Positions 1 to 4,516 of a DNA stretch of 4,516 nt are shown here, piece after piece. Within the stretch, counting starts at the first letter, position 1. Every line of letters begins with the position of its first letter. The stretch is from IMG/VR virus record IMGVR_UViG_2660238190_000008; one strand, 5' to 3'. Source of the stretch: a virus. Taxonomy: Duplodnaviria > Heunggongvirae > Uroviricota > Caudoviricetes. A program made the position numbers and the translations under genes. The notes beneath the pieces were generated by a model, which worked only from the letters and a program-made list of their open reading frames with translations, searched no databases and was not told the DNA's origin.

Positions 1-288
1 TCAAAATCGGTGGAGCTGCATGACAAAGTCATCGGGCATTATCTGAACATAAAACACTATCAATAAGTTGGAGTCATTACCCCAAATTGGAGTTATAGCC
101 TCCATACCAGCAGTGATATCCCCTTTCTGCTCATCTGGACGAGCAAGTGATACCGTTAATGACTTAATTTCAGCATCTATTTTTTTCTGGCTAACTCCCA
201 CGTTAGGTGTTGAAAAATTCAATGGTGGCACACTAGCGCAACCTGTTAAAGAACCAATAATCATGGCTAATAATATTATCTTCTTCAT
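1..288 (-). CDS. predicted outer-membrane lipoprotein, 95 aa (mature about 78 aa)
   Basis: Complete ORF on the - strand (ATG at 288..286, stop TGA at 3..1). N-terminus MKKIILLAMIIGSLTGC has a basic n-region, hydrophobic core and lipobox L-T-G-C with Cys17; the residue after Cys is Ala, so no Asp inner-membrane retention signal. AAGGT Shine-Dalgarno lies 6 nt upstream of the ATG. No homolog recognised from memory. Confidence 0.6.
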   Translation of the reverse strand: MKKIILLAMIIGSLTGCASVPPLNFSTPNVGVSQKKIDAEIKSLTVSLARPDEQKGDITAGMEAITPIWGNDSNLLIVFYVQIMPDDFVMQLHRF

Positions 289-450
289 AAATTTACCTTA
301 TTGTTATAACCAAAGGAATTATAAAGTAAAAAAGTTCACTATCACTAGCCATTAACGACATCAATTTCAGAGAAACATGGTACTCATTTCCACAAATTTG
401 ACACAAGTCATTTTCATCTACATATTCCATCATACTTGATGCATATGTTA

Positions 451-479
451 TTGAAGCCTCTATCCTATCCGTTCATAAT
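451..479 (+). promoter_or_regulatory. sigma70-like promoter candidate for the small membrane protein gene
   Basis: TTGAAG (451-456), 17-nt spacer, CATAAT (474-479), about 65 nt upstream of ATG 545 in an AT-rich intergenic region. Hexamer match only; no experimental support. Confidence 0.3.
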
Positions 480-544
480 AGCAATAGTTACCCGGGTGAT
501 AGTACCTCTATGATTACTCGTCTTTCTGATTGATTGGATTAAAT

Positions 545-736
545 ATGCGCGCCAAAATTTATCAACTTTCGTTATGGATATTTATTTCGTTTCTAGCGAT
601 CTATGCCTTTATTATCTATAAAGGTTCTTATATTGGAGTAGCATTGCATCAAATTGCTTGGATCATCATTATTGCCTCTGGCTTGATTGCTAGGCTAACT
701 AAACCAAAGCAAAAACCAATTTCGTCCAATAATTAG
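545..736 (+). CDS. small two-helix membrane protein, 63 aa (ORF track extends it to a TTG at 530)
   Basis: ORF MRAKIYQLSLWIFISFLAIYAFIIYKGSYIGVALHQIAWIIIIASGLIARLTKPKQKPISSNN has two hydrophobic segments of about 18 and 13 residues separated by a short loop, with a basic C-terminal tail. First ATG is at 545; the TTG at 530 has no better ribosome-binding site. Sits in the AT-rich island with a promoter-like element upstream. No homolog recognised. Confidence 0.5.
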   Translation: MRAKIYQLSLWIFISFLAIYAFIIYKGSYIGVALHQIAWIIIIASGLIARLTKPKQKPISSNN

Positions 737-772
737 ACATGTATTAAAAAATGATATTTTTATGTACATAGT

Positions 773-949
773 CTATTGAAAATTGCCGCGATAAAATGCC
801 AACACCCGCTTCATCGCGGCACTCTGGCGACACTCCTTGAAAATCAGATTCGTGCTCACCTTTCCTTCCCGTTCTTCCCTGGTAGCGAACCGGTAATACA
901 CCGTTCGCCAGACCTTACCATCAATAACTAAGATTCCTGTCCGCGCCAT
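773..949 (-). CDS. hypothetical small protein, 58 aa, oriented against the pL-direction genes
   Basis: ORF on the - strand below the ORF-track size cutoff: ATG at 949..947, stop TAG at 775..773, translating to MARTGILVIDGKVWRTVYYRFATREEREGKVSTNLIFKECRQSAAMKRVLAFYRGNFQ. Balanced, protein-like composition, but only a weak AGG about 11 nt upstream as ribosome-binding site and several CGG/AGG codons. No homolog recognised. Confidence 0.35.
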   Translation of the reverse strand: MARTGILVIDGKVWRTVYYRFATREEREGKVSTNLIFKECRQSAAMKRVLAFYRGNFQ

Positions 950-1118
950 TTTGGCCGCAGCCTGATTTATGCTGGTTACTGTTGCGCCTGTTAGGCGCGA
1001 TCACTTTCGTCTACTCCGTTACAAAGCGAGGCTGGGTATTTCCCGGCCTTTCTGTTATCCGAAATCCCCTGAAAGCACAGCGGCTGGCTGAGGAGATAAA
1101 TAATAAACGGGGAGCTGT

Positions 1119-1310
1119 ATGCACAAAGCATCTCCCGTTGAGTTAAGAACGAGTATCGAGATGGCACATAGCCTCGCTCAAATTGGAGTCAGGTTTGTGC
1201 CAATACCAGTAGAAACAGACGAAGTATTTCATACGTTAGCCGCATCCCTTTCACAAAAGCTGGAAATGATGGTGGCGAAAGCAGAAGCAGATGAGAGAGA
1301 CCAGGTATGA
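1119..1310 (+). CDS. lambda orf63-like small protein of the pL operon, 63 aa
   Basis: ATG at 1119 with GGAG 5 nt upstream; 192-nt ORF, the same length I recall for lambda orf63 and in the same operon position. Its stop overlaps the next ATG in an ATGA motif (1307-1310). Confidence 0.7.
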   Translation: MHKASPVELRTSIEMAHSLAQIGVRFVPIPVETDEVFHTLAASLSQKLEMMVAKAEADERDQV

Positions 1311-1320
1311 CAACCACTGA

Positions 1321-1602
1321 ATGCATTTTTCTGGCAGCGGGCTTCATATTCTGTGTGCTTATGCTTGCCGACATGGGGCTTGTTCAGTGACACCTCAGCA
1401 GGAAAACGCCCTTCGCAGCATTGCCCGTCAGGCTAATTCTGAAATCAAAAAAGCCAGACAGCAGTTTCCGGATAAAAACGTCGATGACATTTGCCGTAGC
1501 GTACTGAAGAAGCACCACGAAACGGTAACGCTGATGGGATTCACACCGACTCATTTAAGCCTGGCGATCGGCATGTTAAACGGCGTCTTTAAGGAACGGT
1601 GA
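1321..1602 (+). CDS. hypothetical pL-operon protein, 93 aa from ATG 1321 (alternative 71-aa form from GTG 1387)
   Basis: Long ORF in the same orientation as the flanking phage genes. ATG 1321 has no good Shine-Dalgarno; GTG 1387 overlaps the stop of an upstream 27-codon ORF (GTGA) and has GGGG 9 nt upstream, so the true start is uncertain. Confidence 0.5.
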   Translation: MHFSGSGLHILCAYACRHGACSVTPQQENALRSIARQANSEIKKARQQFPDKNVDDICRSVLKKHHETVTLMGFTPTHLSLAIGMLNGVFKER

Positions 1603-1624
1603 GCATGAAAAACAAAATCATCAT

Positions 1625-1646
1625 GGAGCTACAGGCTCCTTTTTTA
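1625..1646 (+). terminator. intrinsic terminator candidate inside the pL operon
   Basis: GGAGC (1625-1629), loop TACAG, GCTCC (1635-1639), followed by six T (1640-1645) then ATTATT. The stem is short at 5 bp, so strength is doubtful; N-type antitermination would be expected to read through. Confidence 0.35.
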
Positions 1647-1700
1647 TTATTCGCATTCACCCTCAAGCGTATTAACCAACAATTCAGGGATTAATGAAAG

Positions 1701-1922
1701 ATGGCAGACATCATTGATTCAGCATCAGAAATCGAAGAATTACAGCGCAATACAGCAATAAAAATGCGCCGCCTGAACCACCAGGCTATATCTGCCACTC
1801 ATTGTTGTGAGTGTGGCGATCCCATAGATGAGCGAAGACGCCTGGCCGTTCAGGGTTGTCGGACTTGTGCAAGTTGCCAGGAAGATCTGGAGCTTATCAG
1901 TAAACAGAGAGGTTCGAAGTGA
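1701..1922 (+). CDS. TraR/DksA-family C4 zinc-finger protein, 73 aa (lambda Orf73-like)
   Basis: 73-aa ORF with C-x2-C ... C-x2-C spacing (HCCECGDP ... CRTCASC) and an N-terminal acidic/helical region, the TraR signature. Same length as F-plasmid TraR and lambda Orf73. Stop overlaps the Ea22 start codon in a GTGA motif. Confidence 0.85.
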   Translation: MADIIDSASEIEELQRNTAIKMRRLNHQAISATHCCECGDPIDERRRLAVQGCRTCASCQEDLELISKQRGSK

Positions 1923-2470
1923 GCGAAATTAACTCTCAGGCACTGCGGGCCAAGGCAGAAAAAGCAACGTGTGGTGAGTGGTCGCTCGAATATGGAGAGA
2001 GCCGATTTGATGGTGATGATGCGCTAATTCATCGTGAAGTTGCTGGATATATTCCTATTTGCAGAATTGAAGGAGCGCATCCAGAAAGCGGTTTCGATGA
2101 AGATTTCCAAATGGAACAGCAGGCCAATGCTGAATTCATCGCCGCAGCCAATCCCGCTACCGTCTTGGCGCTGCTGGATGAGCTGGAAAGAAACCAGCAA
2201 TACATCAAACGCCGCGACCAGGAGAACGAGGAGATTGCGTTAACGGTAGGGAAGTTGCGCGTTGAGCTTGAGGCAGAAAAACAGCGGGCAAAGGATCTGT
2301 TTATGGAAAATGCTCGGCTTAAGTCAGGTATAGCCGGTCTGATACACCTCGGTATTCGATATGCAGATGTTGAGGTCATGAGAATTGCTGGAGATGCCCA
2401 GCTTTCTACCCCATGCACTGACAGCATCATAAACAGCATTGCAACAGGCATTCGCATCAAAGGAGAGTGA
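1919..2470 (+). CDS. ea22: Ea22-family protein, 183 aa, GTG start
   Basis: N-terminus MSEINSQAL and C-terminus GIRIKGE match my recollection of lambda Ea22. Central coiled-coil-like segment (LLDELERNQQYIKRRDQENEEIALTVGKLRVELEAEKQRAKDL). Position between the TraR-like gene and ea8.5 is as in lambda. It is 3 nt longer than I recall for lambda ea22, so it is probably a variant allele. Confidence 0.8.
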   Translation: MSEINSQALRAKAEKATCGEWSLEYGESRFDGDDALIHREVAGYIPICRIEGAHPESGFDEDFQMEQQANAEFIAAANPATVLALLDELERNQQYIKRRDQENEEIALTVGKLRVELEAEKQRAKDLFMENARLKSGIAGLIHLGIRYADVEVMRIAGDAQLSTPCTDSIINSIATGIRIKGE

Positions 2471-2672
2471 TATGAGCAGGAATACGGGTTTGTAAAAGAT
2501 AACGCTTGTGAAAATGCTGAATTTCGCGTCGTCTTCACAGCGATGCCAGAGTCTGTAGTGTCAGATGATGACCGTACTCAAACATCGGGTTGAGTATTAT
2601 CTTACTGTTTCTTTACATAAACATTGCTGATACCGTTTAGCTGAAACGACATACATTGCAAGGAGTTTATAA

Positions 2673-2954
2673 ATGAGTATCAATGAGTTAGAGTCTGAGC
2701 AAAAAGATTGGGCGTTATCAATGTTGTGCAGATCCGGTGTCTTGTCTCCATGCAGACATCACGAAGGTGTTTATGTAGATGAAGGTATAGATATAGAGTC
2801 GGCATACAAATATTCCATGAAGGTTTATAAGTCTAATGAAGACAAATCCCCATTCTGCAATGTGCGAGAAATGACTGATACCGTGCAAAATTATTATCAC
2901 GAGTACGGTGGAAACGATACTTGCCCTCTCTGTACAAAACATATAGATGATTAA
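2673..2954 (+). CDS. ea8.5: Ea8.5, 93 aa, Cys/His-rich small protein
   Basis: AAGGAG Shine-Dalgarno 7 nt upstream of the ATG. 93 aa with Cys and His residues (CRHHEG ... CPLCTKH). Length and spacing to xis are exactly as I recall for lambda ea8.5. Confidence 0.85.
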   Translation: MSINELESEQKDWALSMLCRSGVLSPCRHHEGVYVDEGIDIESAYKYSMKVYKSNEDKSPFCNVREMTDTVQNYYHEYGGNDTCPLCTKHIDD

Positions 2955-2974
2955 ACCCAATATTACATAACAAT

Positions 2975-3030
2975 CCTCGCACTCGCGGGGATTTATTTTA
3001 TCTGAACTCGCTACGGCGGGTTTTGTTTTA
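2975..3030 (+). terminator. two tandem hairpin plus T-run elements (terminator candidates)
   Basis: Hairpin 1: CCTCGC (2975-2980), loop ACTC, GCGGGG (2985-2990), then ATTTATTTTA. Hairpin 2: AACTCGC (3005-3011), loop TACG, GCGGGTT (3016-3022), then TTGTTTTA. Each stem has one G-T wobble. Confidence 0.3.
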
Positions 3031-3042
3031 TGGAGATGATAA

Positions 3043-3210
3043 ATGCACTTCCGAGTCACAGGAGAATGGAATGGAGAGCCATTCAACAGAGTTATCGAAG
3101 CGGAGAACATCAACGACTGCTACGACCACTGGATGATATGGGCGCAGATAGCACATGCAGACGTAACCAATATTCGAATTGAAGAACTGAAAGAACACCA
3201 AGCCGCCTGA
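3043..3210 (+). CDS. hypothetical 55-aa protein between ea8.5 and xis
   Basis: ATG 3043 with GGAG 7 nt upstream, stop TGA 3208-3210, translating to MHFRVTGEWNGEPFNRVIEAENINDCYDHWMIWAQIAHADVTNIRIEELKEHQAA. Below the ORF-track cutoff. Position and length correspond to the small unnamed ORF I recall between ea8.5 and xis in lambda. Confidence 0.6.
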   Translation: MHFRVTGEWNGEPFNRVIEAENINDCYDHWMIWAQIAHADVTNIRIEELKEHQAA

Positions 3211-3223
3211 TGGCGGTTTTTTC
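3200..3223 (+). terminator. intrinsic terminator candidate just upstream of xis
   Basis: CCGCC (3203-3207), loop TGAT, GGCGG (3212-3216), followed by TTTTTT (3217-3222). The hairpin overlaps the stop codon of the 55-aa ORF. Confidence 0.45.
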
Positions 3224-3237
3224 TTGCGTGTAATTGC
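3224..3237 (+). promoter_or_regulatory. CII-type activator site (TTGC-N6-TTGC) of the int promoter pI
   Basis: TTGC (3224-3227), GTGTAA, TTGC (3234-3237), lying 13 to 26 nt upstream of the xis ATG. In lambda the CII-activated pI promoter starts transcription inside xis, so Int is made without Xis. Confidence 0.6.
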
Positions 3238-3249
3238 GGAGACTTTGCG

Positions 3250-3468
3250 ATGTACTTGACACTTCAGGAGTGGAACGCACGCCAGCGACGTCCAAGAAGC
3301 CTTGAAACAGTTCGTCGATGGGTTCGGGAATGCAGGATATTCCCACCTCCGGTTAAGGATGGAAGAGAGTATCTGTTCCACGAATCAGCGGTAAAGGTTG
3401 ACTTAAATCGACCAGTAACAGGTAGCCTTTTGAAGAGGATCAGAAATGGGAAGAAGGCGAAGTCATGA
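3250..3468 (+). CDS. xis: excisionase Xis, 72 aa
   Basis: Protein MYLTLQEWNARQRRPRSLETVRRWVRECRIFPPPVKDGREYLFHESAVKVDLNRPVTGSLLKRIRNGKKAKS matches lambda Xis as I recall it. The 3' end overlaps int by 23 nt, as in lambda. Confidence 0.95.
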   Translation: MYLTLQEWNARQRRPRSLETVRRWVRECRIFPPPVKDGREYLFHESAVKVDLNRPVTGSLLKRIRNGKKAKS

Positions 3469-4516
3469 GCGCCGGGATTTACCCCCTAACCTTTATATAA
3501 GAAACAATGGATATTACTGCTACAGGGACCCAAGGACGGGTAAAGAGTTTGGATTAGGCAGAGACAGGCGAATCGCAATCACTGAAGCTATACAGGCCAA
3601 CATTGAGTTATTTTCAGGACACAAACACAAGCCTCTGACAGCGAGAATCAACAGTGATAATTCCGTTACGTTACATTCATGGCTTGATCGCTACGAAAAA
3701 ATCCTGGCCAGCAGAGGAATCAAGCAGAAGACACTCATAAATTACATGAGCAAAATTAAAGCAATAAGGAGGGGGCTGCCTGATGCTCCACTTGAAGACA
3801 TCACCACAAAAGAAATTGCGGCAATGCTCAATGGATACATAGACGAGGGCAAGGCGGCGTCAGCCAAGTTAATCAGATCAACACTGAGCGATGCATTCCG
3901 AGAGGCAATAGCTGAAGGCCATATAACAACAAACCCTGTCGCTGCCACTCGCGCAGCAAAATCAGAGGTAAGGAGATCAAGACTTACGGCTGACGAATAC
4001 CTGAAAATTTATCTAGCAGCAGAATCATCACCATGTTGGCTCAGACTTGCAATGGAACTGGCTGTTGTTACCGGGCAACGAGTTGGTGATTTATGCGAAA
4101 TGAAGTGGTCTGATATCGTAGATGGATATCTTTATGTCGAGCAAAGCAAAACAGGCGTAAAAATTGCCATCCCAACAGCATTGCATGTTGATGCTCTCGG
4201 AATATCAATGAAGGAAACACTTGATAAATGCAAAGAGATTCTTGGCGGAGAAACCATAATTGCATCTACTCGTCGCGAACCGCTTTCATCCGGCACAGTA
4301 TCAAGGTATTTTATGCGCGCACGAAAAGCATCAGGTCTTTCCTTCGAAGGGGATCCGCCTACCTTTCACGAGTTGCGCAGTTTGTCTGCAAGACTCTATG
4401 AGAAGCAGATAAGCGATAAGTTTGCTCAACATCTTCTCGGGCATAAGTCGGACACCATGGCATCACAGTATCGTGATGACAGAGGCAGGGAGTGGGACAA
4501 AATTGAAATCAAATAA
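3446..4516 (+). CDS. int: tyrosine site-specific integrase Int, 356 aa
   Basis: 356-aa ORF starting MGRRRSHERRDLPPNLYIRNNGYY and ending REWDKIEIK, matching lambda Int from memory. Tyrosine-recombinase catalytic residues are present in the expected contexts (GQRVGDL Arg, HELRSL His-x-x-Arg, LLGHKSD His, SQYRDD Tyr). Stop TAA is the last codon of the window. Confidence 0.97.
   Translation: MGRRRSHERRDLPPNLYIRNNGYYCYRDPRTGKEFGLGRDRRIAITEAIQANIELFSGHKHKPLTARINSDNSVTLHSWLDRYEKILASRGIKQKTLINYMSKIKAIRRGLPDAPLEDITTKEIAAMLNGYIDEGKAASAKLIRSTLSDAFREAIAEGHITTNPVAATRAAKSEVRRSRLTADEYLKIYLAAESSPCWLRLAMELAVVTGQRVGDLCEMKWSDIVDGYLYVEQSKTGVKIAIPTALHVDALGISMKETLDKCKEILGGETIIASTRREPLSSGTVSRYFMRARKASGLSFEGDPPTFHELRSLSARLYEKQISDKFAQHLLGHKSDTMASQYRDDRGREWDKIEIK

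Follow-up and report, generated by a model that had tools for sequence, protein, structure and literature searches.

The AT-rich left end of a lambda-like prophage sequence very probably forms part of a composite decay scar

Decay of cryptic prophages in Escherichia coli, through loss of early genes and entry of insertion sequences (IS), has been reviewed previously (PMC6379469). IS1 is described as a 768 bp element with terminal repeats of approximately 30 bp, producing a target duplication of 8 to 9 bp upon insertion (PMC12428005). Here we analysed a 4,516-nucleotide stretch of a lambda-like prophage held as virus record IMGVR_UViG_2660238190_000008 in IMG/VR; the whole stretch is termed the window, and coordinates are counted from its first base. 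Positions 1 to 780 had been read, in a preliminary description, as an AT-rich accessory island bearing a lipoprotein gene and a small membrane protein gene, situated in the leftward (pL) operon where lambda carries exo, bet and gam. We conclude with considerable confidence that positions 1 to 993 of this defective lambda-like prophage are instead a composite scar, and not an accessory island of the leftward operon. The locus is an instance of ordinary prophage decay of an already known kind, and the main value of the analysis lies in correcting the island reading.

Three steps would account for the arrangement. Firstly, intact relatives carry a cassette between ren and ninB, transcribed in the direction of ren and consisting of an AT-rich spacer, a gene for a 186-residue lipoprotein and a gene for a 150-residue glycine-zipper lipoprotein. 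Secondly, a single illegitimate deletion at a 2 bp microhomology would have removed the 5' part of ren (ren'), P, O, cII, cro, cI, N, kil, gam, bet and exo, together with nine codons at the start of orf60a; the event is taken from genome comparison and its mechanism we infer. Thirdly, and only in the source strain, IS1 entered the lipoprotein gene past codon 69. The features of the scar and its right-hand border are as follows.

1-81, + strand: right terminus of IS1, by identity to a 768 bp IS1; transposase stop codon at 64-66, terminal inverted repeat ending at 81.
82-288, - strand: 5' fragment of a lipoprotein gene (codons 1-69 of 186), its N-terminal 69 residues identical to the protein of record L001.
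289-772, no strand: AT-rich spacer between the lipoprotein gene and ren, 31.8% G+C.
318-345, - strand: promoter-like site GTGATA-16-TATAAT, a consensus match only, approximately 30 nt upstream of the lipoprotein start codon.
545-736, + strand: orphan hydrophobic open reading frame (ORF) of 63 residues (68 from a TTG at 530), probably not a gene.
773-993, - strand: 3' end of ren (the last 72 of its 97 codons and the stop codon), with the first 25 codons and the start codon missing.
992-994, no strand: deletion junction with a TA microhomology at 992-993, from a three-way alignment including the intact prophage L002.
994-1146, + strand: orf60a (DUF1317) without its first nine codons and start codon, by identity to lambda.

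Positions 773 to 993 were 90.6% identical to lambda ren and 99.7% identical to the ren gene of L002. Furthermore, window 798-993 matched ren in 164 phage records, on the strand opposite to that of the pL genes. The corresponding RefSeq label in L001 reads 'protein ren, incomplete, missing N-terminus', and homology to the whole Ren protein with an intact frame was not found in the window: the ren remnant is a pseudogene.

In both L002 and phage PhiR30_1, the genes were found in the order ninB, 150-residue lipoprotein, 186-residue lipoprotein, a spacer of approximately 480 bp, ren, P and O. The arrangement of ren, spacer and lipoprotein gene was present in 280 of 5426 complete E. coli genomes, counting those that contained at least 80% of window 1-1000. 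The gap between ren and ninB is only 73 bp in lambda (from the end of ren at 40570 to the start of ninB at 40644) versus approximately 1.7 kb in L002 and PhiR30_1; the rightward operon therefore carries the cassette as cargo in its ren-ninB slot. Alignment of the locus across related prophages, as had been proposed in the preliminary description, thus recovered the block in relatives, but between ren and ninB and not as an insertion in the pL operon. A literature search on the ren-ninB cargo slot and on PhiR30_1 returned nothing specific.

Alignment with L002 also located the deletion. Identity on the ren side stopped at window 993 and identity on the exo side started at 992, with L002 8001-8919 corresponding to window 76-993 and L002 15871-16767 to window 992-1882, collinear and in the same orientation. 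The junction joins ren, between codons 25 and 26, to DNA lying 25 bp downstream of the exo coding sequence. In lambda coordinates the junction points fall at about 40354 and 31323, enclosing approximately 9.0 kb (about 31324-40353). The equivalent interval of L002, approximately 6.95 kb, holds the 5' end of ren, P, O, a gene at the position of cII, cro, the repressor gene, further early genes, kil, gam, bet and exo. The direct succession of exo and orf60a is the normal order, as seen in L014, L002 and lambda. Since the leftward and rightward early operons point away from the immunity region, the nin-side genes now stand head-to-head with the genes from orf60a to int, and a deletion across the immunity region would therefore make the block appear where exo, bet and gam should be, on the opposite strand. 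Lacking its immunity, replication and recombination genes (cI, cro, O, P, N and the Red genes), the prophage is incapable of induction and replication. More generally, a low-G+C 'island' beside conserved phage genes can arise by a deletion that unites DNA of two divergent early operons.

This junction is not confined to the window. Window 82-4516 was found at 100% identity in five complete E. coli genomes without the IS1 (BS74R-D, IAL7250, IAL7252, IAL7254 and IAL7255), where complete lipoprotein genes and ninB stand on the left and int adjoins ybhC. In IAL7250 the order runs from quuD through rusA, ninE, ybcN (ninB), the 150-residue lipoprotein, the 186-residue lipoprotein, ren (incomplete) and DUF1317, and onward to xis, int and ybhC. 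The lambda attachment site adjoins ybhC, and the defective prophage of IAL7250 thus sits at that site. From these comparisons, the junction of truncated ren and truncated orf60a is shared, while the IS1 insertion is private to the source strain.

In the RefSeq annotation of L001, truncated orf60a is given as a 55-residue DUF1317 protein (window 979-1146, + strand) whose start lies inside the ren remnant. The N-terminus of this putative product arose at the deletion junction.

A further deletion, independent of the one described above, was observed in L010 (GCA_900449035.1, 3150-4600). Here ren, at approximately window 897, is joined at a 'GTAAT' microhomology to a recombinase gene that is itself truncated (Pfam RecT) and whose sequence matches bet. 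Given this second deletion between ren and a recombinase gene, loss of immunity and replication functions with one endpoint in ren has therefore occurred at least twice. Decay at this locus is recurrent, since an IS1 or IS5-type element occupies the same spacer elsewhere and one independent deletion joins ren to bet.

The left edge of the window was assessed separately. Window 1-81 was 100% identical to the last 81 bp of the 768 bp IS1 copy in L013, in which the annotated IS1A transposase coding sequence ends at the base equivalent to window 66 and the far end carries a matching imperfect inverted repeat (18 of 23 positions). Window 1-160 was then queried against the 5426 complete E. coli genomes. 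Positions 1 to 81 were matched in 4969 of them, at approximately 10 places per genome and with annotation as IS1 transposase, the matches spanning from about 1-81 to 1-106. Since window 1-81 is identical to the end of a 768 bp IS1, the window starts inside IS1 and the element ends at base 81. A duplicate of the IS1 target, CCAAATTGG (window 82-90), is expected at the far end of the element. The idea that 1-81 represents the lambda leader upstream of cIII, implying a clean replacement of cIII to exo, was rejected, as the stretch matches IS1 copies genome-wide.

The flanks of IS1 at several unrelated loci resembled window 82-106. In L013 (1282-1310), 15 of the first 20 flanking bases matched, and the top matches to the IS1 end reached query positions 100 to 106, beside grxA, ypjC, yafP and other genes. 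This likeness could reflect a target-site preference of IS1, or merely that the closest flanks were picked out of tens of thousands.

At this locus the cassette is destroyed. The - strand lipobox ORF of the preliminary description does exist, as a 95-residue frame at 1-288 with the lipobox LTGC; it is not a complete gene, however, but a chimera of 69 native codons out of 186 followed by 26 residues translated from the IS1 terminus (GNDSNLLIVFYVQIMPDDFVMQLHRF). Comparison was made with the 186-residue protein of L001 (7654-8214), the N-terminal 69 residues of which are identical to the window fragment. Identity to L001 breaks exactly at window 82, and the start of the BLAST alignment at 76 is a chance extension. 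The fragment at 82-288 encodes the signal peptide, the lipobox, a tether, the first strand and eight residues of helix 1. After the signal peptide and lipobox, the product would thus comprise 53 native mature residues and the 26 IS1-encoded residues, with 117 of the 170 mature residues missing. A complete-looking ORF can, in this way, be a gene stub finished by IS sequence.

Structure prediction for the full-length protein, using 35 diverse homologs, returned a model with a predicted local distance difference test (pLDDT) value of 84 and a predicted template modelling (pTM) score of 0.77. The model consists of a signal peptide, a tether to approximately residue 39, a strand (40-48), a helix (62-80), three further strands (90-101, 109-121 and 127-139) and a C-terminal helix (147-170). 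As the cut at residue 69 falls within the first helix, the domain cannot form; on this model, the stub is predicted to be unable to form the LptE/PelC/PqiC-like domain. The partner gene lies outside the window, and a working module anywhere in 1-780 is unlikely. The earlier suggestion of foreign accessory DNA with an envelope lipoprotein as its main gene is therefore right in kind, while an envelope module present in the window is contradicted by the interruption after codon 69 of 186.

Expression signals ahead of the stub were also considered. A Shine-Dalgarno-like AAGG lies 8 nt before the lipoprotein ATG, in addition to the promoter-like site listed above. The preliminary description had pointed to promoter-like hexamers between the two divergent genes; three were counted in the region, compared with 3.6 +/- 2.0 in shuffled sequences, so that their frequency does not exceed chance level.

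A 46-residue ORF with a CxxC motif was noted at window 293-433 (- strand); it shares its strand with the lipoprotein gene and ends 5 bp before the start codon of that gene. The ORF matched no Pfam or PHROG family and is unannotated in every record inspected.

The compositional observation that had drawn attention to the locus was reproduced. Counted G+C was 0.400 at 1-100 and 0.300 at 541-640, exactly the values of approximately 40% and 30% previously obtained by hand. The AT-richness relative to the lambda-like genes is real, with 34.0% G+C across 82-772 against 45.8% for 994-4516. The lowest window of the same 691 bp length elsewhere has at least 0.404 G+C (z of approximately -6.2 for the AT-rich block). 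The single unit of 1-780 that had been proposed does not stand, however: 1-81 is IS1, the AT-rich block proper is 82-772, and from 773 onward the ren remnant has 50% G+C. Inside the block, the spacer is the poorer part at the value listed above, with 39.1% G+C in the lipoprotein fragment. This low G+C marks the foreign spacer and the cassette's 5' end. A repeat search across 1-1100 revealed only short, chance-like repeats.

Several points weigh against the reconstruction. No direct ancestor is at hand; L002 is 96.5% identical in the right arm, and one deletion is the simplest reading of the comparison. The junction of IS1 and lipoprotein gene was seen in this window only: it was not found in the complete E. 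coli genomes, its exact 36-mer was absent from species-representative genomes, and an exact look-up of the 95-residue chimera was likewise empty. Moreover, the window begins within IS1, beyond which may follow either the remaining codons of the lipoprotein gene or a deletion mediated by IS1. Finally, the sequence may allow the lipoprotein stub or the small ORF to be expressed.

Of the rival explanations, the one that survives best supposes that the scar partly works, either because the 63-residue ORF encodes a real membrane protein or because the lipoprotein stub is made, lipidated and exerts some effect on the envelope. We consider this unlikely. For the stub, a promoter-like site, a ribosome-binding site, the signal peptide and the lipobox are all retained, but the greater part of the mature protein is lost. 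For the ORF at 545-736, the hydrophobic divergent frame (530/545-736, + strand) noted in the preliminary description as a small membrane protein gene is present, intact in the window and in most copies, with two hydrophobic segments and an orientation divergent from the lipoprotein ORF. A TTGACA-17-CATATT motif lies approximately 120 nt upstream, a variant (P0123) carries an in-frame deletion of one codon without a frameshift, and one phage record, PhiR30_1, annotates the ORF as hypothetical, this being its sole annotation.

Its standing as a gene is nevertheless poor. Only five database clusters matched, all from E. coli and at 86% identity or above, so that the ORF is an orphan of near-identical copies; it belongs to no Pfam, PHROG, NCBIfam or PADLOC family and is not preceded by a clear Shine-Dalgarno sequence. 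An ATG-initiated ORF of at least 63 codons arose in 9% of dinucleotide shuffles of the spacer (p ~0.09), indicating that the length is not above chance, and RefSeq leaves the ORF without annotation in L001 and L002. In two of the five clusters the ORF is fused to an IS, of the IS5 type at approximately 690-694 (L010 and L011) and IS1 at approximately 646 (L012), and insertions in it have thus been tolerated in at least two lineages. Additionally, the ORF is not present in the Klebsiella and Bordetella versions of the cassette. Most likely, the ORF arose by chance in T-rich DNA. That it should be a real two-helix membrane protein, antisense to the rightward operon and perhaps a toxin-like or exclusion peptide, and so the one working part of the scar, we regard as improbable.

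The spacer itself (289-772) has no homolog outside E. coli prophages, a single phage record matches it, and Rfam returned no family at threshold, only sub-threshold chance matches. Similarity between the E. coli and Klebsiella cassettes at the DNA level is limited to the two genes plus approximately 21 bp upstream of the lipoprotein start.

Three independent IS insertions, two of IS1 and one of the IS5 type, were observed inside the 691 bp AT-rich block in different strains (at window 82, at approximately 3102 in L012 and at approximately 3150 in L010 and L011). IS1 and IS5-type elements prefer AT-rich targets, and the three insertions fit this preference.

A second rival holds that the junction at 81/82 is an assembly artefact, the contig having been misjoined or misended at a repeated IS1. 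Besides being seen in this window alone, the junction belongs to a window that starts in a repeat present approximately 10 times per genome, and both facts favour this reading. Against it, the boundary coincides precisely with the final base of the IS1 terminal repeat, as in a true insertion; IS1 and IS5-type elements have entered the same 691 bp block independently in other strains; and the other junction, between ren and orf60a, occurs in five independent complete genomes. An artefact is accordingly very improbable.

Least credible of all is the original proposal of an AT-rich island that replaced exo, bet and gam in the pL operon, with a complete lipoprotein and a small membrane protein acting on the envelope: its left neighbour is IS1 and not cIII, kil or other pL-operon DNA, its right flank is a truncated ren in the rightward (pR) orientation, 280 genomes and one phage carry the same block between ren and ninB, the lipoprotein ORF holds only 69 native codons, the small ORF is unsupported, and neither lipoprotein nor the small ORF matched the PADLOC defence-system library.

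The 186-residue protein of the intact cassette has 512 homologs at E <= 0.001, including homologs at 60 to 83% identity in Klebsiella, Edaphovirga, Bordetella, Xanthomonas, Lysobacter, Stenotrophomonas and Luteimonas. It matched no Pfam or NCBIfam family at E <= 0.1, YajG included, and none in PADLOC, and a profile search of PDB sequences was empty. It falls within PHROG 12521 and its 150-residue partner within PHROG 13877, both families of unknown function. The partner carries a lipobox and a sub-threshold match to a glycine zipper (PF05433, 21.1 bits against a threshold of 24.2).

Records of the 186-residue family are often named 'UDP-N-acetylglucosamine acyltransferase' (P0001, P0003, P0021, P0041, P0057, P0075 and P0114 are so named) and sometimes 'lipoprotein' or 'YajG family lipoprotein'. 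The acyltransferase name looks like a propagated misannotation, being contradicted by the lipobox and the predicted LptE/PelC/PqiC-like fold. Membership of the YajG family, a RefSeq name in one genome, was also rejected: there was no profile match, and the same accession is a 'hypothetical protein' in other RefSeq genomes. This lipoprotein family is widespread among proteobacteria, its members commonly bear the wrong acyltransferase name, and it is carried as cargo in approximately 5% of complete E. coli genomes.

Outside phages, the pair of genes is conserved at chromosomal loci of Klebsiella oxytoca and Bordetella. Its G+C content tracks that of the host, at 43.7% in E. coli, 50.3% in Klebsiella and 57.3% in Bordetella. 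The non-phage settings and the host-tracking composition therefore identify it as an old bacterial two-lipoprotein unit that was acquired by a lambdoid phage. Our best guess is that the intact pair would serve a lysogenic-conversion function in the outer membrane, for which the truncated copy in the window is unfit.

The right three quarters of the window, + strand throughout, correspond to the left arm of a lambda-type prophage. The features, from the annotation of L001 and lambda, are as follows.

994 onward, + strand: truncated orf60a, orf63, orf61, a DksA-like gene, ea22, ea8.5, orf55, xis and int, in this order.
3250-3468, + strand: xis.
3446-4516, + strand: int.

Identity to lambda was 97% between window 992-1947 and lambda 31323-30367, and 99.7% between window 2485-4516 and lambda 29843-27812. 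Across most of ea22 (window 1948-2484) identity falls, and only 2171-2281 aligns, at 90%; between such flanks, this drop marks a typical mosaic patch. The ea8.5 region (window 2500-3000) is also fairly AT-rich at 39% G+C, although it is lambda's own sequence. Record H85 seemingly has an IS1 near this arm, yet its order of exo and orf60a is normal and the IS1, which is unrelated, sits in ea22. A terminator-like hairpin of nine pairs (six of them G-C) with a T-rich tail was detected at window 1028-1050 (+ strand), within truncated orf60a and just past the end of lambda exo; it may match a known leftward terminator of lambda.

Set against described systems, the left edge is canonical IS1 in its terminal 81 bp, which take in the last part of the transposase gene as well as the terminal inverted repeat, and differs in that only the right end of the element lies within the window. 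The intact cassette resembles the morons, or lysogenic-conversion cassettes, carried by lambdoid phages (such as lambda bor/iss and lom) in being an extra unit with bacterial homologs between genes that are nearly adjacent in lambda, and in possessing an AT-rich upstream region, a promoter-like site (a motif of chance frequency) and envelope lipoproteins. It differs from them in that its coding part is close to the phage in G+C content (43.7% compared with 45.7%) and in that the unit is truncated in the window. The 186-residue protein shares with LptE, PelC, PqiC (DUF330) and CsgG-N lipoproteins a lipobox and, in the predicted model, a tethered two-layer alpha/beta domain; its sequence identity to them is only 6 to 15%.

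A further likeness is to the cryptic ('grounded') lambdoid prophages of E. coli, such as DLP12, Rac and Qin. As in these, early genes (immunity, replication and others) are deleted and IS elements inserted, while int/xis, the nin region, lysis genes and accessory genes are kept. DLP12 likewise has a ren pseudogene beside IS5 and carries emrE and ybcK-M as cargo between ren and ybcN/ninB, the same slot. Unlike these prophages, the relatives of the present one have int next to ybhC, the lambda attachment site; its left arm is 97 to 99.7% identical to lambda; and its ren-ninB cargo is a pair of lipoprotein genes in place of emrE.

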